From assembly GCA_027031765.1 (NCBI GenBank), contig JALVPN010000091.1, forward strand, positions 25,572 to 33,642: 8,071 nt of DNA, given 5' to 3'. The notes beneath the pieces are model-generated. The model had not been told where the DNA came from. It did not search any database and was given only the letters and a program-made list of their open reading frames with translations. This DNA comes from Promethearchaeota archaeon (lineage in GTDB: Archaea > Asgardarchaeota > Thorarchaeia > Thorarchaeales > Thorarchaeaceae). The first letter of the stretch is position 1; each line of letters begins with the position of its first letter. Below are positions 2 through 8,071 of the stretch, in pieces. The position numbers were made by a program, and so were the translations under genes.

Positions 2-676
2 GACAACCAGCTCCGCGAACAGGGTGCGCTGGACAAGTACGACGAGGTCCTCAAGGAGGTGCCGCGTGTGCGTGCCGAACTCGGGTACCCGCCCCTCGTC
101 ACGCCCTCAAGCCAGATTGTCGGGACACAGGCGGTCCTCAATGTCATTACTGGCGAGCGCTACAAGATAATCCCGCATGAGGTCAAGCAGTACATCCGGG
201 GCTTCTACGGCCGTCCCCCAGCAGAGATAGACCCGGAAGTCCGTCGGCTCGCAATCGGGGACGAGGCCCCACTCACGTGCAGACCAGCAGACCTCCTCGA
301 GCCGGGCCTGCCTGCTGCGCGGGAGGCACTCAAGGACATCCCCCATAAGCCGCGCGACCTTGTGTCGTACGCGCTGTTCCCACAGTACGCACTGGACTTC
401 CTGAAACGCAGGGCCCAGCGCAGACAGCGCGGTACGACTACCGGGCCTCAGGAGGCAGCAATTATCGCCTCGGTGCTCCACCAGACCATCCAGATGGGCA
501 CCAGCCCCACCAGGGCTATGTCACATGGCAGCCCGTGGGCATCCGCCGGCCGCGAGGAGGCGGTATCGATACCCGTAGTGTATACCGGCCCGGGCCGCTG
601 GGGCAACTCAGGCTCACCTTGGTCCGCTGTCGGCCGCAGGCTCCTCATGCGTGCGAGGACCTTGGAGGGAGCATAG
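2..676 (+). CDS. pycB: Pyruvate carboxylase subunit B / oxaloacetate decarboxylase alpha family carboxyltransferase, 5'-truncated (C-terminal PYC_OADA region); no biotinyl domain; epsilon/PccX-like C-terminal tail
   Basis: The frame is open from nt 2 (DNQLREQGALDKYDEVLKEVPRVRAELGYPPLVTPSSQIVGTQAVLNV...ERYK...YIRGFYGRPP...ALFPQYA), so the GTG at 59 is internal. These are hallmark PycB/OadA/transcarboxylase-5S motifs. Stop TAG at 674-676. PycB, OadA and 5S cannot be told apart from this fragment. Confidence 0.9.
   Translation, partial: DNQLREQGALDKYDEVLKEVPRVRAELGYPPLVTPSSQIVGTQAVLNVITGERYKIIPHEVKQYIRGFYGRPPAEIDPEVRRLAIGDEAPLTCRPADLLEPGLPAAREALKDIPHKPRDLVSYALFPQYALDFLKRRAQRRQRGTTTGPQEAAIIASVLHQTIQMGTSPTRAMSHGSPWASAGREEAVSIPVVYTGPGRWGNSGSPWSAVGRRLLMRARTLEGA
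664..668 (+). promoter_or_regulatory. Shine-Dalgarno site for the biotin carrier gene
   Basis: GGAGG lies 7 nt upstream of the GTG at 676, embedded in the last codons of the upstream gene. Confidence 0.7.
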
Positions 677-1203
677 TGTCTTTCGAGTATGACATTTCCA
701 TTGACGGTCAGGACTATCGTGTGAGGATTGAGCGTCTTGACAGGGGTGGCCTCTTGGTAGTGCGCGTCGGAGACGAGACCTTCACCCTGAAGACCTCTCC
801 CAATGAGGATGGTACGTGGAGCGTGAGCGACCAGGCATCCAGCCATGTGGTGCGGGTCGTGCGTCGCATGGGCCGGAACGCCACCATCGAGCTCGACGGG
901 GTGTCACGAGAGGTCGAGTGGAAACGAGTACACAGGACGGTCGCTGCACAGAAGGCCCCAGAGGTACCTTCAGGGGGCGGCGGCCGGCAGCCCGGCGGTG
1001 TGTACCCGCCCATGCCCGGAAAGATCACCGAGGTGCTGGTCAGTGTGGGCGACAGGGTCGAGGAGGGCCAGACCGTGTGCATCCTCGAGGCCATGAAGAT
1101 GTTCAATGAGCTGCAGGCACCTTGCAGTGGCACCGTGCGTGAGGTGAACGTGACGCCTGGTGCTACTGTCAAGCAAGATGACCTGTTGGTCCTCATAGAG
1201 TGA
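676..1203 (+). CDS. Stand-alone biotin carboxyl carrier protein (biotinyl domain with an N-terminal beta-rich, BT-like region), 175 aa
   Basis: The GTG at 676 overlaps the upstream stop (TAGTG) and follows GGAGG at 664-668. C-terminal biotinyl domain PMPGKITEVLVSVGDRVEEGQTVCILEAMKMFNELQAPCSGTV, with EAMKM at 1087-1101. Ala/Pro/Gly-rich linker. The track's start at 535 overlaps the upstream gene and is unlikely. Confidence 0.92.
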   Translation: MSFEYDISIDGQDYRVRIERLDRGGLLVVRVGDETFTLKTSPNEDGTWSVSDQASSHVVRVVRRMGRNATIELDGVSREVEWKRVHRTVAAQKAPEVPSGGGGRQPGGVYPPMPGKITEVLVSVGDRVEEGQTVCILEAMKMFNELQAPCSGTVREVNVTPGATVKQDDLLVLIE

Positions 1204-1218: not shown

Positions 1219-2382
1219 GTGGAGCCTGTGTTCGTCATCGGTGTGAGTATGACCCGGTTCGGAGTGCTCGGGGAGTCGTTCGCTGAGCTGGCCCTGTCAG
1301 CGGCAGTCGAGGCGATGCGTGACTCCCATACCCTTGAGATGTCCGTTGACCGGGTGGTCGTGGGGAGTCAGAGCCCCGAGGAGTTTGTCAATACGGGCCA
1401 TGTGTCCACCATGCTGGCCGACCTGTTGGGCACTGTACCCGCCGGTGCCACGCGCGTTGAGACTGGCCCGTCTTCAGGTGCCAGTGCATTCGAACTCGGC
1501 TCGGCCCTAGTCGCGTCCGGTATGGCAGGACTGGTACTGGTCATCGGTGTCGAGAAGATGACGGCGGTGGAGCGTGGCACGGCATCACGGGTCCTTGCCA
1601 AGATGATGTCATACGAGTCCGAGACCCGCTACGGTGCAACGCCCACGGCCCTGGCCGCAATGATTGCTCGGCGGTACATGCACGACTACGGTCTGACACG
1701 CGATGAGCTCTCACTTGTCCCCGTCAAGGCCCATGCCAACGGTGCCAAGAACCCGCTGGCCCACTTCCAGAAGGGGGTGTCAGTGGAGAAGATCCGTAGG
1801 GCACGGGTCATAGCAGACCCACTCACTCTGTATGACTGCTGTCCCACAAGTGACGGCGCCGCAGCCCTCGTCCTCGCATCGTCGTCAGTTGTACGTGACC
1901 TCGGTCTGCGTGACCAGGCCGTGCGCGTGCTGGGCGTAGGTCATGCCACTGACTACCTCGCTGTCCAGCACCGTCTGTCCCTGACATCGATGGGCGCCAC
2001 CGTGCGCGCTGCTGAGAACGCCTTTCATATGGCCGGCCTCCGTCCATCAGATGTTGATGTCTGTGAGCTCCATGACGCCTTCTCAATCCTAGAACTGATA
2101 GCGATGGAGGACATTGGCATTGCGCAGCGTGGACACGCCATCGACCTCGTGAAGGAGGGCCTGACAGAGGTCTCGGGAGACATCCCAGTCAATACGACCG
2201 GTGGCCTGAAGGCAAGGGGTCACCCGACCGGAGCTACTGGTGTCGCGCAGCTCCGTGACCTCGTCCTGCAACTACGTGGTGATGCACCCAAGGGGCTACA
2301 GGTGGACTCCCCCAGTGTGGGACTGGCCCACAACATTGGTGGCTTTGGCAACAACATGGTCGTGACGCTTCTCGGTCTATGA
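1219..2382 (+). CDS. Thiolase-family protein, SCP2/archaeal type, non-canonical active site (387 aa)
   Basis: N-terminal VIGVSMTRFG, GVEKM, DCCPTSDGAAA, ELHDAF (HDAF 2071-2082), GGLKARGHPTGATG (GHP 2218-2226) and HNIGG (2329-2343). The nucleophile loop reads RVETGPSSG instead of the usual RVExACASG. Confidence 0.93.
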   Translation: MEPVFVIGVSMTRFGVLGESFAELALSAAVEAMRDSHTLEMSVDRVVVGSQSPEEFVNTGHVSTMLADLLGTVPAGATRVETGPSSGASAFELGSALVASGMAGLVLVIGVEKMTAVERGTASRVLAKMMSYESETRYGATPTALAAMIARRYMHDYGLTRDELSLVPVKAHANGAKNPLAHFQKGVSVEKIRRARVIADPLTLYDCCPTSDGAAALVLASSSVVRDLGLRDQAVRVLGVGHATDYLAVQHRLSLTSMGATVRAAENAFHMAGLRPSDVDVCELHDAFSILELIAMEDIGIAQRGHAIDLVKEGLTEVSGDIPVNTTGGLKARGHPTGATGVAQLRDLVLQLRGDAPKGLQVDSPSVGLAHNIGGFGNNMVVTLLGL

Positions 2383-2574: not shown

Positions 2575-3741
2575 ATGCCTGAAGGACTAGCAGTACTGAA
2601 GTGGGATGATGAACTTGGTCCAGTGGTCGCAGCAAAGACCCCGAAGTCCCTGACCAAGGGTCTGGACCCGACCACGTCCATGCGCGTCTATGGTATCGCT
2701 ACACTAGGGGAAACAGAAGAGTCACAGAAGCCTGGTTTCAGTGCACTGTCGTTTGACGACTTCAAACTTGCTGTGTACTATGGTGGTCTGAGCATGCACC
2801 TGAAGGGACTTCCGTCCATGGTGTTCTTGGTGCTGCGTCCCGACGAAGACCCTGACGTCTACAAGGACGCCCTACCTGAGCTGGCCACCCAGATCTTCCT
2901 GAACGCCGAGGGCAACAAGTACAAGAAGCTGATACCCAAGTTCTTCAAGCAGATTGCACGGTACACGCTGATGACGCCTGAACAACGACAGGCGTCCGTG
3001 CTGAGCGACCCCGTCCGCAGGGCAATCCTACAGACCCTTGTACGTGATGGCACCATCCAGTCCAATGACCTCGAACAGATAATCTTCGAAGAGGTCGGCA
3101 AGAAGATAGATGTGGAGATGGTGCTCCGCCCCCTGGTCAAGATGGGGATCATAGCCACCGGCTGGGTCGAGGGCCTAGCGTCTGAGGTGATATATCTCAC
3201 CCGTGCCATCTTCATACTGCGGAAGATATCGATGGAAACAGTCCGTGCGGTCAAGAGTGGTGGCCTGCCGCAGGACACGGTCGCCCAGTTCGTCGAGTCG
3301 ACACGTCGGTATCACCGGGACTACATTGCTCGCCTGAAACGAGACCTCACCGACACACTCTGGAAGGACGCAGAGGAGCTAGCGAAGGTGCTGCTCGACT
3401 TCGATGCATACGACCTGATTCAGATATTGCGCGAAGGGCCCCAGCAGACAGAACATCTCCCGAGCCTGCTCGATACGACCAAGGCCCGACTGCGGAAGCA
3501 GCTCTCGGCCCTTGAGAAGGCCAACATCGTAATGCGTGTGAATGATGAGGGGGGACGTGAGCATGTCCTCTTGAAGTCAGACCCAGAAGTTGTCACGGTC
3601 TACCCTGAGTGGCTGATAGAGCGGACAGTCGAGCTCTACAATGATGAGGCAATACCCAGTCGTCAGGCAGTCCACTACCTTGAGATACTGAAGAAGTCGC
3701 ACCCGACCTATGCGACAGTGACGGTCACGGGGGGTGAGTGA
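2575..3741 (+). CDS. Longin/uDENN-like domain plus two winged-helix domains (388 aa), function unknown
   Basis: The ORF is clear, with GGGAG at 2560-2564. N-terminal GLAVLKWDDELGPVVAAKTP resembles the uDENN/longin opening hairpin. Two ArsR-like wHTH segments: LSDPVRRAILQTL...VLRPLVKMGII (3001-3198) and LDFDAYDLIQIL...LRKQLSALEKANIV (3394-3573). Domain calls are by eye. Confidence 0.7.
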   Translation: MPEGLAVLKWDDELGPVVAAKTPKSLTKGLDPTTSMRVYGIATLGETEESQKPGFSALSFDDFKLAVYYGGLSMHLKGLPSMVFLVLRPDEDPDVYKDALPELATQIFLNAEGNKYKKLIPKFFKQIARYTLMTPEQRQASVLSDPVRRAILQTLVRDGTIQSNDLEQIIFEEVGKKIDVEMVLRPLVKMGIIATGWVEGLASEVIYLTRAIFILRKISMETVRAVKSGGLPQDTVAQFVESTRRYHRDYIARLKRDLTDTLWKDAEELAKVLLDFDAYDLIQILREGPQQTEHLPSLLDTTKARLRKQLSALEKANIVMRVNDEGGREHVLLKSDPEVVTVYPEWLIERTVELYNDEAIPSRQAVHYLEILKKSHPTYATVTVTGGE

Positions 3742-3742
3742 G

Positions 3743-6700
3743 ATGGTACGCGTAGAAAGAGTCGCAGTCCTTGTTGTCCTTGCAGTCCTCATGGCTCTCC
3801 CGTCCATTGGGGGCAACAACACCACGAGTCCCAGGGATGATGCCCTCGTACCGGATTTGCTGATAGGAGGGCCCCACCACGAGACCGCATCAGCACAGGA
3901 CACTGTACCGTGGTGGAACACGAGCTTTGCATATCGACGGTACTACAACATCACCGAACCAGGGATAAGCGCACGACACAATACCCCTGTCCACCTGTCC
4001 CTGACCTTCGCACCAGGGCACTGCTACCGTGGCTCAATCCGCGTGTTGTACTACGACGGCGTGTCGTGGGCAACAAGGCCGTTCCAGGTCTGGAACGTGA
4101 CCTATGATGCAACGGGCGACTATATCCTGTCTGCCCGTGTCAGTTTCCTGGTCAACGTCTCCAAGAGTGGGGTCCAACAGAACTACTACATCTACTACTC
4201 GAAGAACGACGTGGGCACTGTCAGTTATCCTGACTTCTACCCGTTCGTCTACAAGACCTACACCTACTCCTTGCTGGAGCTGGCATCCTACTATGACAAC
4301 AACAACTACGAGGTCCTGATGTGGGACAGCGCAGCCCAGCAGTGGGACGACCCACGCAATGTCGATTCCCAGTGGGCCTCAGCCACCGGTATCATCCAGT
4401 CGGGTGTTGTGACGAATGTCCCCACAGGTACGCTCAACAAGTACCAGAACGTGCGCATAGAGCCCAACGTGGCCTACACCAACACAGCATTCCTCGGGTC
4501 CTACATGGTGCGCTCGAACTACCCGCTTGCATTCACGGCTGGCAGTGGGCACAAGAACTCCAACCCGGCTGTGAACGACTGGTACCCGAATGTCGACGAG
4601 ATTGGTTGGGGTGTCGGGACACGGTTCATCATTGGTGGTGTTTCCGGTTTCGACAACTACTACGAGGGCAAGTACTGGGTACAGGCACAGACCAACAACA
4701 CCCGTGTCTGGGTATGGACGGTCTCGGAGACCCCGGATACAAACTGGTACTTCTACAATGGCTCCGCAGTGTCGTCGTGGCCAGCCATACTCCATGCGGG
4801 CGAGTATATCTCGAAGAAGCGTGTCAACTACCAGACCTTCTACATGGTGAACGCCACCGGCCTGATCTCAGTGCGGAGCGGTGATGTCGACGCTGCTTAC
4901 TCCCGTGACGTGATGGGCTTCTATCCTGCCGTGACCGGCCTCCTTGTCGGCAACGAGTTCTACACAATCGACATGGGCCACTCCTCCGACCGCACGCGTA
5001 TCACCAATATCGGTACTTCTGCGGTCTCGGTCACGGTCTACAGGAACAGCGGCTCCGGCTGGACACAGATTGCCACTCCACTGATTGCAGCAAACAGTCA
5101 CTATGACGTGCCCAACGGTGTTGCAAGCGACTCCAATCCTGAGGATGTGCTACACATTGTCGCTCCCGCCGGTGCGAAGCTGATGGTCGAGGGCACCTAC
5201 AACCCCGGGGGCCGCAGTGACCACGGTGACTGGTTCCCGACAACGGGTGGCTATCGGTTTGGTACTCACTTCACTATCTGGGGCTTCTCCCAGTCCAAGT
5301 TCTTCATATTCGCTTGGGAGAACGCACAGGTCACTATAACCGGCTCCAACGGTGGCACCCTCCAGATCCCAGCTGGTGGGGCTGACACGTTCCTGCCACT
5401 TTCGAGCAGCCCGTCCCTGTACACGGTCACGTCGAACGCGACCATCGGCATCGTGCGTGCCTCCCGGTTCTACACATCGGCACCCTACGGTCCACGCGGT
5501 GACCAGGGCTATGGCTGGATGGTACCCGTCTACTCTCCGGAAGGGGACGAGCACGGCGTGACAGTGACAGAGAGTCCAGAGCGCCACCTCTTCGAGTTCG
5601 ACATCGTTGTGACCGACCTCGATGGTGCAGCCATTTCAGGCGCAACCGTCACACTCTATGACCCTGCTACCCACCAGGTCTGGCTGGATGACAACGGCCT
5701 CAACCGGACAGGCGTATCTGATGCGAACGGCAGGGTCGTATTCGAGGGCCTCAACAACATGACCTACGAGATCAGGACGCGCATCGATGCCGCAACGTGG
5801 CTGTCCACATCATACTCCCATGTCTGGGTGACGGACACATCCAATCACGCCATGACGGCAACAGTAACGGATGTCCAGATCACGCTCAACATTGCAACGG
5901 TCTATGTCCACCTCAACGACCTCAATGGCGAGTCCATGGACGACACGGTGGACGAGGACATCCTGATGAAGATGTGCAATGATACCAGTGACGACTCCCA
6001 GTACATCCACATCGCACAGGCGAACGGTACGGGCTGGCTGGAGTTCCCGAGGGTGCCGGTGCCCCAGACGGAGTACTACTTCCGTGCCCGCTATGCTGGC
6101 GCACACTCGTGGAACTCGTACTCATACGACCAGCTCAAGCAGTTTGCGAACTGGAACGTCAGCGCCGCGGACTTTGCAAGTGGCTCGTTCACAGAGCACT
6201 GGGCCCTCCCACTGGTCACACTCCAGATCCATGTCCATAGCTGGGACAACCTCCCAGTCCCCAATGCCTACGTCGAGTTGAACAACACCATGGACGAGCA
6301 GGCGTACCGCATCAACCCGCAGACAACAGACTCCAACGGTAACGTCACACTCAGACGCGTTGTCAGTGGGACATGGAAACTCAATGTCTGGCGCGAAGAT
6401 GACTTCGGCCTTGAAGTGCGCAACAACACTGCTGCGATAGTCCTGCACAATGTCCAGTCGTACACTGCATTCACAGTGCAGCTCAGGCTGACCCGCTTGA
6501 ACGTGGTAGTCAAGTATGGTGCTGAGCAGAACAATGTCGAGGGCGCCACAGTGAAAGTGTACCTCAACAATGAAACGCTCGTAGCGACTGGACAGACTGA
6601 TTCCAGCGGTGAGGTGGTATTCAAGTGGATTCGTGGCAACATGTCCTCACCTCACTGGTGGTACACCATCGATGTTGCGAAGGGCACTTCCAATGTCACA

Positions 6701-8071
6701 CGGCAGGGCGTACGTGCAGACTACAACTACACCTACTGGAACCTGGTGGTCTTGCCAGAGCCAGCATATCCAAAACCGTACACGGAGTTCCAGTCGAGCT
6801 ATAGCTTTGAACAGCGGTGGTGGTACAAGAACTTCACCTTCACCTTCGACTACTGGAACCGGACAGGTAGCGAGTCGTCCTCAGTCCTGACCAACGTGAC
6901 GTACGACGCTACCACATTCGTGATGTTCAAGATATTCATGGGCAGCACCCTGATAGGACAGGACGTATGGACCACCACAACATCGCAGTACATCACCTGT
7001 CATGCCAACATCCACACGTTCAATGCAACAATCGACCTTGTGCACTGGGCCCTCAATGCGAGCGACACACCGTACCGCATTGTGGTGTCTGCCCACACGT
7101 ACGGCTACGCTGACCCCAAGGAACTCGTCATATACCTGACCGTGTTGGAGGCTGAAACCACCGCGGGCTCCGATACGGGTGGTTCAATTGTTGAGTACTA
7201 CAAGATGCACAGTGCGCACCTGTTCTGGCTCAACGACACGAAAAATGGTGGCAATGTGAGCAGTCTGGACACCCACTCCTACTCGGTGCACCTTGGGCTG
7301 ACCGTACTACGCTCAGGACAGCTGACCGACAATGGCAATGGGACATACACACTGCCCGCCAGTGCCCTCCACGGCCTCGATGTGGGCACCTACGTTCTGA
7401 TTGCGAACCTGACCAAGCAGAACTTCGAGTCGGCTGTGCTCAGCATCGAGGTCACAATACGTGAGGTGCCAATGGCTGTCGACATCTCGCCGCACGCCTC
7501 CTACGAGTGGTCACTGGCGGCGGACCAGCTCCTCTTCAGGTACAACATCGCCAGCAACGGCACCACGCCCGACCTAGGAGGTATTTCCGTTACCATTGTG
7601 TGGATCAACCACACCTCTGGCACCGAGTACCTCACGGTCGAGAGGACTCTCAGCCTTAGTGGTGGGGACTATATCTACTCGTTCACACGCAATGTGGTGC
7701 CTGTCGGCCAGTGGGAGGTCAGGGTCACATGCAAGGCCGACAACTATGCAGAGGCGTCAGATGTGCTGGTCTACATCACGGTCTCTGCCGCAGCGACCAC
7801 TGCAACACCCGACCACGCGTCGGTGTCGGTGGACTGGGGCTCTGATGCGACGTTCGATGTGGCCTTCTCCAGAAACAGCGACTCTGCCGGTCTTGCTGGT
7901 GCTACTGTGACCCACAACTGGACCCAGCCCATAATCATCACCGACCTCGGCGACGGCCACTACACGGTGGTTGCAAAGACGCTTCTTGAGGCAGGCACAT
8001 ACACGCTGCACCTGACGTTCAGCACGGCGAACCACCAGGACGCGAGCGTCGACCTCTCAGTGGTCATATAC
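3743..8071 (+). CDS. Giant exported or cell-surface multidomain glycoprotein (adhesin/S-layer-like), 3'-truncated, >1443 aa
   Basis: Manual translation from ATG 3743 shows no stop through nt 8071 (1443 codons). It is missing from the ORF track, presumably because the stop lies outside the window. SD-like GGGGGGTGA at 3729-3737. Signal peptide MVRVERVAVLVVLAVLMALPSIGG. DUF2341-like PWWNTSFAYRRYYNIT...YYIYYS (3908-4201), then beta-rich repeats. About 34 N-X-S/T sequons by manual count. Confidence 0.92.
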   Translation, partial: MVRVERVAVLVVLAVLMALPSIGGNNTTSPRDDALVPDLLIGGPHHETASAQDTVPWWNTSFAYRRYYNITEPGISARHNTPVHLSLTFAPGHCYRGSIRVLYYDGVSWATRPFQVWNVTYDATGDYILSARVSFLVNVSKSGVQQNYYIYYSKNDVGTVSYPDFYPFVYKTYTYSLLELASYYDNNNYEVLMWDSAAQQWDDPRNVDSQWASATGIIQSGVVTNVPTGTLNKYQNVRIEPNVAYTNTAFLGSYMVRSNYPLAFTAGSGHKNSNPAVNDWYPNVDEIGWGVGTRFIIGGVSGFDNYYEGKYWVQAQTNNTRVWVWTVSETPDTNWYFYNGSAVSSWPAILHAGEYISKKRVNYQTFYMVNATGLISVRSGDVDAAYSRDVMGFYPAVTGLLVGNEFYTIDMGHSSDRTRITNIGTSAVSVTVYRNSGSGWTQIATPLIAANSHYDVPNGVASDSNPEDVLHIVAPAGAKLMVEGTYNPGGRSDHGDWFPTTGGYRFGTHFTIWGFSQSKFFIFAWENAQVTITGSNGGTLQIPAGGADTFLPLSSSPSLYTVTSNATIGIVRASRFYTSAPYGPRGDQGYGWMVPVYSPEGDEHGVTVTESPERHLFEFDIVVTDLDGAAISGATVTLYDPATHQVWLDDNGLNRTGVSDANGRVVFEGLNNMTYEIRTRIDAATWLSTSYSHVWVTDTSNHAMTATVTDVQITLNIATVYVHLNDLNGESMDDTVDEDILMKMCNDTSDDSQYIHIAQANGTGWLEFPRVPVPQTEYYFRARYAGAHSWNSYSYDQLKQFANWNVSAADFASGSFTEHWALPLVTLQIHVHSWDNLPVPNAYVELNNTMDEQAYRINPQTTDSNGNVTLRRVVSGTWKLNVWREDDFGLEVRNNTAAIVLHNVQSYTAFTVQLRLTRLNVVVKYGAEQNNVEGATVKVYLNNETLVATGQTDSSGEVVFKWIRGNMSSPHWWYTIDVAKGTSNVTRQGVRADYNYTYWNLVVLPEPAYPKPYTEFQSSYSFEQRWWYKNFTFTFDYWNRTGSESSSVLTNVTYDATTFVMFKIFMGSTLIGQDVWTTTTSQYITCHANIHTFNATIDLVHWALNASDTPYRIVVSAHTYGYADPKELVIYLTVLEAETTAGSDTGGSIVEYYKMHSAHLFWLNDTKNGGNVSSLDTHSYSVHLGLTVLRSGQLTDNGNGTYTLPASALHGLDVGTYVLIANLTKQNFESAVLSIEVTIREVPMAVDISPHASYEWSLAADQLLFRYNIASNGTTPDLGGISVTIVWINHTSGTEYLTVERTLSLSGGDYIYSFTRNVVPVGQWEVRVTCKADNYAEASDVLVYITVSAAATTATPDHASVSVDWGSDATFDVAFSRNSDSAGLAGATVTHNWTQPIIITDLGDGHYTVVAKTLLEAGTYTLHLTFSTANHQDASVDLSVVIY
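4232..5527 (+). repeat. Four degenerate ~100-115 aa protein repeats, IgGFc-binding (FCGBP N-terminal)-like
   Basis: Boundary motifs DFYP (4232), DWYP (4577), GFYP (4916), DWFP (5228) and GWMVP (5513). Internal motifs TLNKYQ/ILHAGEY/LIAANSH/QIPAGG and MVRSNYPLA/MVNATGLIS/TVTSNATIG. No clear DNA-level repeat. Confidence 0.55.
5591..6760 (+). repeat. Four tandem carboxypeptidase-regulatory-like / transthyretin-like beta-sandwich domains
   Basis: Units start near 5591 (VVTDLDGAAISGATVTL...SDANGRVVF), 5894 (HLNDLNGESM...ANGTGWLEF), 6212 (HVHSWDNLPVPNAYVEL...TDSNGNVTL) and 6488 (NNVEGATVKV...TDSSGEVVF). Confidence 0.65.
7150..8071 (+). repeat. Tandem ~100-aa Ig-like stalk repeats
   Basis: Recurring hairpin motif DNGNGTYT (7328), SGGDYIY (~7658) and DLGDGHYT (7943), each followed by a G-T/Q-Y/W-x-hydrophobic strand and an N-Y/F/H-E/Q-x-A segment. 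Boundaries are approximate. Confidence 0.55.

Follow-up and report, generated by a model that had tools for sequence, protein, structure and literature searches.

A thiolase-fold protein with proline in place of the nucleophile cysteine, encoded in a biotin carboxyltransferase operon of Thorarchaeota

The gene considered here encodes a thiolase-like protein in a Promethearchaeota archaeon of the family Thorarchaeaceae, and lies in an 8,071-nucleotide stretch of a metagenome-assembled genome (MAG; 2.95 Mb, 95% complete, 229 contigs; GenBank assembly GCA_027031765.1). The whole of this stretch, positions 25572-33642 of contig C91 (JALVPN010000091.1), is referred to below as the window, and coordinates are those of the window unless another contig or a locus is named. 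The open reading frame (ORF) at 1219-2382 on the forward strand is free of interruptions and encodes 387 amino acids. The protein and the motifs on which the argument turns are:

1219-2382, forward strand: thiolase-fold protein without a nucleophile, 387 aa (assigned from Pfam, PDB matches, an AlphaFold2 model and Foldseek)
1465-1479, forward strand: GPSSG loop, with Pro84 (CCG, 1468-1470) in place of the nucleophile cysteine of the CxS motif
1834-1845, forward strand: DCCP motif, Cys207/208
2071-2082, forward strand: HDAF, the HDxF motif (residues 285-288), with His285 kept and alanine in the third position
2188-2226, forward strand: VNTTGG...GHP stretch with Asn325 and His335 (GHP itself at 2218-2226, residues 334-336)
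2329-2343, forward strand: HNIGG C-terminal loop (residues 371-375), followed by FGN; no cysteine

An earlier note on this DNA, made from its letters alone, had reported proline at the nucleophile position, an HDAF motif, a C-terminal HNIGG loop devoid of cysteine and a retained GHP, and every one of these statements about the sequence holds. Residue 84 is proline, set in VETGPSSG, and in phmmer comparisons with PDB sequences it falls on the CxS cysteine of two solved archaeal thiolases, 7YVY (P. furiosus; E 5e-90) and 6ESQ (M. thermolithotrophicus; E 1.5e-75), with the posterior probability at its maximum. The protein has the Pfam domains Thiolase_N and Thiolase_C_1. Its AlphaFold2 model, with a mean predicted local distance difference test score (pLDDT) of 97.4, places Pro84 in the nucleophile elbow, between the strand at residues 76-80 and the helix at 86-99, and Foldseek matches the model to 6ET9/6ESQ (TM-score 0.97, root-mean-square deviation 1.3-1.4 Å), with 7YVY and 4YZO next. 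As modelled, the protein is of the SCP2/archaeal thiolase type. The motifs that define archaeal acetoacetyl-CoA thiolases (ACATs) are CxS, HDxF and GHx (PMC12960953); the window protein has the fold, the domains, HDxF and GHx, lacks the CxS cysteine, and is encoded not next to a hydroxymethylglutaryl-CoA (HMG-CoA) synthase gene but among genes for a 5S-type carboxyltransferase, a biotin carboxyl carrier protein (BCCP) and a longin/winged-helix-turn-helix (wHTH) protein.

A single unusual codon could be an assembly or sequencing error, or a sign that the gene is a decaying pseudogene, and the fragmentation of the source MAG, with runs of N close by, would give some ground for such a view. Its probability is nevertheless negligible. 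Proline occupies the nucleophile position in 120 of the 120 closest database homologs, which come from independent assemblies, are 68-75% identical and likewise share HDAF and NIGG[F/L]G; the earlier note had proposed checking whether the change from cysteine to proline is conserved across the clade, and close homologs indeed do not retain the cysteine. The nearest homologs that bear a taxon name belong to Thorarchaeota. Intact orthologs without internal stops (61-75% identity) are present in 54 of 59 Thorarchaeaceae genomes, among 61 genomes of the class that were searched, and are sharply set off from the Cys-bearing paralogs, which reach at most 43% identity; for conservation counts of this kind, genomes of one family are non-independent samples. 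The proline codon itself varies, being CCT, CCA or CCC across 20 orthologous loci and CCG in the window, and all four are used. Read across these sequences, the codon drifts while the residue is held, and the gene is evidently kept under selection: together with the high pLDDT of the model, this upholds the note's opinion that the gene is not in decay.

The note had also described both catalytic cysteines as missing. The nucleophile cysteine is indeed lost, but the second loss was overstated, since HDxF tolerates alanine in Cys-bearing thiolases: HDAF occurs in 21 of 86 Cys-bearing relatives, and 7YVY combines CASG with HDAF. The thiolase of the HMG-CoA synthase (HMGCS) operon in the archaeon's own genome has CASG but HDSF, so the HDCF cysteine appears dispensable even in a presumed housekeeping thiolase. 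To judge from these alignments, this cysteine is not diagnostic and is not a universal catalytic residue in thiolases of the archaeal type. As for a different cysteine in the nucleophile role, an option that the note had left standing, Cys207/208 of the DCCP motif can be ruled out, as Cys-bearing thiolases have the motif too and the Cys-less clade described below does not keep it throughout; Cys282 was likewise rejected as a substitute (not conserved or not clade-specific).

Four paralogs of the thiolase-like gene are found in the same genome. Three of them carry the cysteine and have a DUF35 gene behind them, and one of these belongs to the canonical HMGCS-thiolase-DUF35 mevalonate operon on contig C47 (locus L002, 418-3082). 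The fourth, of 438 aa (contig C49; L005, 1249-2565), is also Cys-less, with a VENGGNTGG nucleophile loop and HDAF, and is followed by a DUF35-like ORF. As this paralog falls outside the Pro/Ser clade, the cysteine has been lost more than once in this branch of the superfamily.

To place the window protein, 1.84 billion representative sequences were searched exhaustively and the best 150 aligned; among these 150, the nucleophile position is cysteine in 84, serine in 23 and proline in 15. Forty-five sequences form one clade, with 99% local support in FastTree and an SH-aLRT of 96-99% in IQ-TREE, in which the position is proline in 24, serine in 19, threonine in one, gapped in one and cysteine in none. 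So far as sequences can tell, this Cys-less clade is ancient, and carries proline, serine or threonine but never cysteine. By parsimony on the tree, Ser/Thr and Pro have swapped at least five times within it; its root state is serine or proline, with proline slightly favoured for most of the clade. Loss of the cysteine co-varies with changes from HDCF to HDA/M-F and from GG[ST]G to GGFG. His285, Asp286, Asn325 and His335 are invariant or nearly so, both among the Cys-less members, archaeal and bacterial and about 40% identical, and among the Cys-bearing relatives. No conserved catalytic residue has been gained in the Cys-less clade, in which the only clade-specific positions are Ala287, Arg333 and Asn379.

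The clade takes in a sequence (P0201) with the motif of ST0096 (4YZO) and, with an SH-aLRT of 99%, the Hfx. mediterranei pHM500 thiolase (4139-5290), which has an overlapping DUF35 gene downstream. From its position (about the fourth gene) and its DUF35 neighbor, this pair is most probably HFX_6004/6003, the alpha and beta subunits of BktB. As summarized in reviews quoting Hou 2013 (PMC7137286, PMC9049629, PMC11205408), BktB is a two-subunit ketothiolase with a catalytic “Ser-His-His” and an indispensable OB-fold beta subunit, and condenses acetyl-CoA with propionyl-CoA. Since its serine members are reported to be active, the clade is not simply one of dead thiolases. The window protein agrees with the BktB/PhaA type in clade placement and in the two catalytic histidines (His285 and His335), and differs from it in lacking the serine. 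Of the family as such, BktB/PhaA and 4YZO were already known; a literature search found no paper on its Pro-type members. New here are the placement of the BktB-alpha-like protein inside the Cys-less clade, the count of Ser/Pro swaps, and the motif-level exclusion of the steroid aldolases Ltp2 and Sal discussed below.

What might a thiolase fold do without its nucleophile? One of the two NH groups of thiolase oxyanion hole 2 is the backbone NH of the nucleophile residue. Pro84 supplies no nucleophilic side chain and has no backbone NH to give, from which we infer that the protein forms no acyl-enzyme and is not the acetoacetyl-CoA thiolase of its annotation; with no acyl-accepting side chain at this position, a ping-pong thiolase cycle is ruled out, as the note had anticipated in proposing non-thiolytic chemistry. 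The “acetyl-CoA acetyltransferase” label is almost certainly wrong.

One way around this would be an unconventional ketothiolase with no need of a side chain at position 84, working by direct Claisen condensation of two bound thioesters or with a nucleophile that the DUF35 subunit or some other source provides. Such an enzyme would share its clade with BktB-alpha, a user of propionyl-CoA, and would be encoded next to enzymes making propionyl-CoA; the interchange of serine, proline and threonine while the rest of the site stays fixed is also what would be expected if the side chain were dispensable. It is improbable all the same. All condensing enzymes so far characterized in the thiolase superfamily work through a covalent acyl-enzyme (see also PMC12960953); only one CoA tunnel runs through the fold, the Pro-type members have no cysteine or serine conserved specifically among them, and the haloarchaeal serine is reported to be catalytic.

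The preferred reading, that the protein acts without thiolysis on a short acyl-CoA, draws on its genomic setting. The other genes in the window are:

2-676, forward strand: 5S-type carboxyltransferase gene, 3' part (PycB/OadA/transcarboxylase 5S; PYC_OADA; PF02436 3e-46, NCBIfam PycB/OadA/5S)
676-1203, forward strand: BCCP, 1.3S-like, 175 aa (Pfam Biotin_lipoyl 3e-20, NCBIfam BCCP)
2575-3741, forward strand: longin/wHTH protein, first gene of a variable island (weak Pfam HTH_20; kept downstream of the thiolase-like gene in relatives)
3734-8071, forward strand: giant surface glycoprotein gene, 5' part, also within the island and running off the window

The 5S gene is the first of an operon, and the DNA directly before the window encodes its HMGL-like N-terminal half. 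Its TAG stop overlaps the GTG start of the BCCP gene, in which the biotinyl-lysine of AMKM is encoded at 1096-1098, and the thiolase-like gene, the last of the operon, starts 15 nt past the BCCP stop. The order 5S-BCCP-thiolase-like is found in 17 of 19 orthologous loci. A 12S carboxyltransferase gene, with mmdA as its best match, lies about 4 kb upstream, and contig C91 also carries genes for methylmalonyl-CoA epimerase, methylmalonyl-CoA mutase, MeaB and two CoA-transferases. The transcarboxylase gene set of 12S, 5S and BCCP is thus present; neither a biotin carboxylase C-domain (PF02785) nor an OadB/MmdB-type pump beta subunit (PF03977) was detected in this 95%-complete genome. With neither of these detected, the three biotin-enzyme genes point to a putative methylmalonyl-CoA:pyruvate transcarboxylase.

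Several other features of this neighborhood may be recorded. An apparent frameshift in the 5S gene just upstream of the window was rejected as such: it coincides with a run of 10 N (L025, 11963-11972) that occupies the ten positions ahead of window base 1 and has duplicated “tga” flanks, a scaffolding gap, and the gene of a relative is intact. Runs of N, appearing as XXXX in translation, are also seen in the thiolase paralog at L004 and in the giant surface protein. The PYC_OADA domain of the 5S protein is followed by a C-terminal tail of about 80 aa (window 500-676) with two GSPW-x3-GR motifs and no family match, through which relatives align at about 65-70% identity. Between the block of mutase, epimerase, MeaB and CoA-transferase genes and the 12S gene (C91 1-13700, L119, and 13600-21500, L025) are redox genes, encoding a NiFe-hydrogenase large subunit-like protein, an FAD/NAD oxidoreductase, a 4Fe-4S protein and a CCG-domain (HdrD-like) protein, which suggests that a redox module is embedded in the same metabolic neighborhood.

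The thiolase-like protein also has a partner. A specific, single-copy DUF35 ortholog is present in 50 of the 61 genomes of the class, and in all 36 genomes that have both genes on one contig, the DUF35 gene comes after the thiolase-like gene in the same orientation, 27 nt to 20.5 kb downstream. It is free-standing, at 107-115 aa. In the archaeon's own genome the DUF35 copy is on contig C34 (1465-1812, minus strand) and the window gene on C91, so that the downstream gene for a putative DUF35 beta subunit, characteristic of the BktB/PhaA type, is seen in the relatives. In these relatives a variable island lies between the two genes. The constant order and strand of the DUF35 gene suggest an ancestral 5S-BCCP-alpha-DUF35 unit, later split by the island. 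In the window, the longin/wHTH gene overlaps the start of the giant surface protein gene by 8 nt, and an Arf-like GTPase gene comes after these two; the surface protein is rich in N-glycosylation sites and has a C-terminal transmembrane helix and an acidic tail of PEAVE repeats.

Taken with the operon, the partnership makes the thiolase-like protein, by inference from gene content, the probable alpha subunit of an alpha/DUF35 pair at the propionyl-/methylmalonyl-CoA node. The earlier note had missed the BktB-family membership, the DUF35 partner and the place of the gene as the last in a biotin carboxyltransferase operon. The collinearity of DUF35 in 36 genomes and the genome-wide non-detection of biotin carboxylase and pump subunit are also new.

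Comparable arrangements occur in other lineages. In one Asgard family (f7) the gene order is classic thiolase, Pro-type, DUF35 and mutase, and in another (f18) a mutase gene lies 1.4 kb from a pair consisting of a Pro/Thr-type gene and DUF35. In a Thermoplasmatota MAG (L101), the genes for BCCP, biotin carboxylase and carboxyltransferase stand on one side and those for epimerase and mutase on the other; on three metagenome contigs (L125, L148 and L186), mutase and its B12 subunit, MeaB or epimerase are encoded beside a Pro/Thr-type gene with DUF35. No orthologs were found at E <= 1e-110 among 80 genomes of the class to which L101 belongs, the threshold being too strict or the gene rare. The supposed “5S” neighbors at L141, L161 and L184, all of them Thr-type loci, proved on inspection to be LeuA-type synthases and were set aside. 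Tandem Cys-less and Cys-bearing copies are found at L124, L181, L186 and L187.

A large bacterial branch with NGPASG has a cluster of its own, in which the gene for a 220-aa protein without a Pfam match is accompanied by Pro-type, DUF35, AllH-like, FdrA/AllF-like, AllG-like and PF04199 cyclase genes. The cluster is found in many bacterial phyla, including the cultured Anaerocolumna aminovalerica DSM 1283; its loci, bacterial and Heimdall/Bathy, are L036-L053, L139, L156, L174 and L176. It appears to represent an uncharacterized CoA-ester pathway.

Does the protein in the window still handle a CoA ester, or is it a pure pseudoenzyme? In the latter case it would bind or convert no CoA ester and, with DUF35, would assemble or stabilize other enzymes (the transcarboxylase, the mutase or a Cys-bearing thiolase paralog, for instance), a role comparable to that of PhlA in PhlACB or of the chain-length factor in type II polyketide synthases. 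The loss of the nucleophile, of the HDCF cysteine and of one oxyanion-hole NH fits such a role, as does the lack of any new conserved catalytic residue beside the three clade-specific positions; DUF35 is a known scaffold in the thiolase/HMGCS, Ltp2, Sal, PhlACB and archaeal fatty-acid synthase complexes, and the tandem copies at some loci could be read in the same way. However, His285, Asp286, Asn325 and His335, residues of a kind that pseudoenzymes usually lose, are invariant across members only about 40% identical, and in Thorarchaeota the gene stands alone, with no Cys-bearing thiolase alongside. A scaffold is for these reasons a serious but rather unlikely explanation. The invariance of His285, His335 and Asn325 instead suggests that the CoA-thioester pocket is probably still in use.

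The preferred reading, to which the comparisons of sequence and gene order give about an even chance, is that the pocket is still used, non-thiolytically, for an acyl-CoA of the propionyl/methylmalonyl node. A short acyl-CoA, for example (methyl)malonyl-, propionyl- or succinyl-CoA, would be bound in the retained His-His-Asn pocket and its thioester polarized, permitting enolate chemistry without a covalent intermediate. By analogy, the leading and simplest candidate for such chemistry would be a biotin-independent decarboxylation of (methyl)malonyl-CoA; alternatively, the CoA ester might be held, via DUF35, for neighboring enzymes of the pathway. Of the earlier note's proposals, CoA-ester handling or a scaffold role is thus the one retained.

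Several observations weigh against this proposal. The link to the pathway is not universal, the NGPASG branch being found with AllH-, FdrA- and AllG-like and cyclase genes, and in the metagenome sample mutase or carboxylase neighbors are no commoner at Cys-less loci (about 7 of 38) than at Cys-bearing ones (5 of 31). Of 251 Asgard genomes, 189 have the mutase and about 70 a relative of the thiolase-like gene, so that co-occurrence does not discriminate and the pathway can do without the protein. With a transcarboxylase or ATP-dependent carboxylase next to it, a free decarboxylase would be futile in part, and the invariant histidines and asparagine could be kept for the fold or for ligand binding alone.

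A bolder and, taken as a whole, doubtful version can be put forward: Pro-type alpha/DUF35 pairs would be active enzymes that act on (methyl)malonyl- or propionyl-CoA by C-C or C-CO2 chemistry and form no covalent acyl-enzyme, those of Thorarchaeota being coupled to an ATP-independent transcarboxylase, and the haloarchaeal “Ser-His-His” ketothiolases would perhaps be revertants from a Pro-type ancestor by a single CCN-to-TCN change. Regaining a nucleophile in this manner would explain why they have serine instead of cysteine.

These proteins matter beyond the single locus. Pro-type members are widely labeled “acetyl-CoA C-acetyltransferase” in databases, and the number of thiolase/DUF35 pairs in Asgard genomes has been taken as evidence that these archaea can synthesize fatty acids (bioRxiv 2024.07.05.601840); such counts overestimate the capacity to do so, because in each Thorarchaeota genome one of the pairs, a conserved one, cannot be a thiolase. 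In a large and old family, spread over archaea and many bacterial phyla, the nucleophile site toggles between serine, threonine and proline while the rest of the active site is kept, which means either that thiolase activity has been lost and regained repeatedly or that the chemistry has no need of the side chain. In Thorarchaeota, the gene marks an apparently transcarboxylase-based propionate/methylmalonyl-CoA module.

Among known systems, the best matches in both sequence and structure are the thiolase of the M. thermolithotrophicus thiolase/HMG-CoA synthase/DUF35 complex (6ESQ/6ET9) and P. furiosus PFC_04095 (7YVY), for the latter of which no paper was found in the literature search. These archaeal acetoacetyl-CoA thiolases share HDxF, GHx and the DUF35 partnership with the window protein, and 7YVY also HDAF, but they keep the CxS cysteine and adjoin HMG-CoA synthase, neither of which is true of the window protein. 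ST0096 of Sulfolobus tokodaii (4YZO; DNTSGSGG, HDMA; Foldseek E about 2e-41) is a solved member of the Cys-less clade, with serine where the window protein has proline; no published function for it was found, and it figures only as a structural neighbor in PMC6392133.

The steroid side-chain aldolases Ltp2 (6OK1) and Sal, the first of which the earlier note had offered as an analogy, likewise combine a Cys-less thiolase fold with a DUF35 domain and release a short acyl-CoA. A retro-aldolase of this type, releasing propionyl-CoA or acetyl-CoA from a 3-hydroxyacyl-CoA, would suit the neighborhood, since Ltp2 releases propionyl-CoA, and an enoyl-CoA hydratase gene is close to some relatives (L101, L128). 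In Ltp2/Sal, however, catalysis depends on the tyrosine of YDHF (Ltp2) or YDCY (Sal), with histidine or cysteine at the third motif position, and on a glycine that stands where the cysteine was and binds the hydroxyl of the substrate through its backbone NH (PMC12329534). In the window protein the motif is HDAF, with histidine for the tyrosine and alanine in the third position, and the glycine is replaced by Pro84, which has no amide hydrogen. In phmmer the protein matches Ltp2 at an E-value of only 5e-34, where archaeal thiolases reach 5e-90, and Ltp2 ranks only 43rd among its Foldseek neighbors. The DUF35 of Ltp2/Sal comes from a MaoC-type hydratase partner (ChsH2/Shy), whereas that of the Thorarchaeota is free-standing, with no MaoC hydratase fusion; neither the window nor its flanks showed a MaoC gene. 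The analogy therefore fails at the level of motifs, and a retro-aldolase of this type is very improbable.

In the KS-Q and chain-length-factor relatives of ketosynthases, the active-site cysteine is lost and two histidines are kept, and the proteins are malonyl decarboxylases or non-catalytic partners; they belong to another branch of the superfamily, depend on acyl carrier protein, and have glutamine where the window protein has proline. KS-Q domains nonetheless offer one precedent for decarboxylation of the kind proposed here. A precedent for non-thiolytic enolate chemistry within the SCP2-type thiolase fold is TbSLP of Trypanosoma brucei (5AB4-5AB7), which is reported to bind malonyl-CoA and decarboxylate it weakly (kcat 0.005 per s, as quoted in PMC12329534). 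It is eukaryotic, has a YDCF motif and no DUF35 partner, and is 22-23% identical to the window protein.

A close parallel is the probable haloarchaeal BktB-alpha (pHM500), 39% identical to the window protein. Both lack the nucleophile cysteine, both keep the two histidines and a GGFGN C-terminal loop, and both are linked to propionyl-CoA; the DUF35 partner is also common to the two, the haloarchaeal one being a small protein (OB-fold and zinc ribbon) encoded downstream. The haloarchaeal enzymes, reported to be active, have serine (RIDQTSSSGG) and HDMF where the window protein has proline and HDAF, and their genes lie among polyhydroxyalkanoate genes, whereas the neighbors of the window gene are those of a transcarboxylase.

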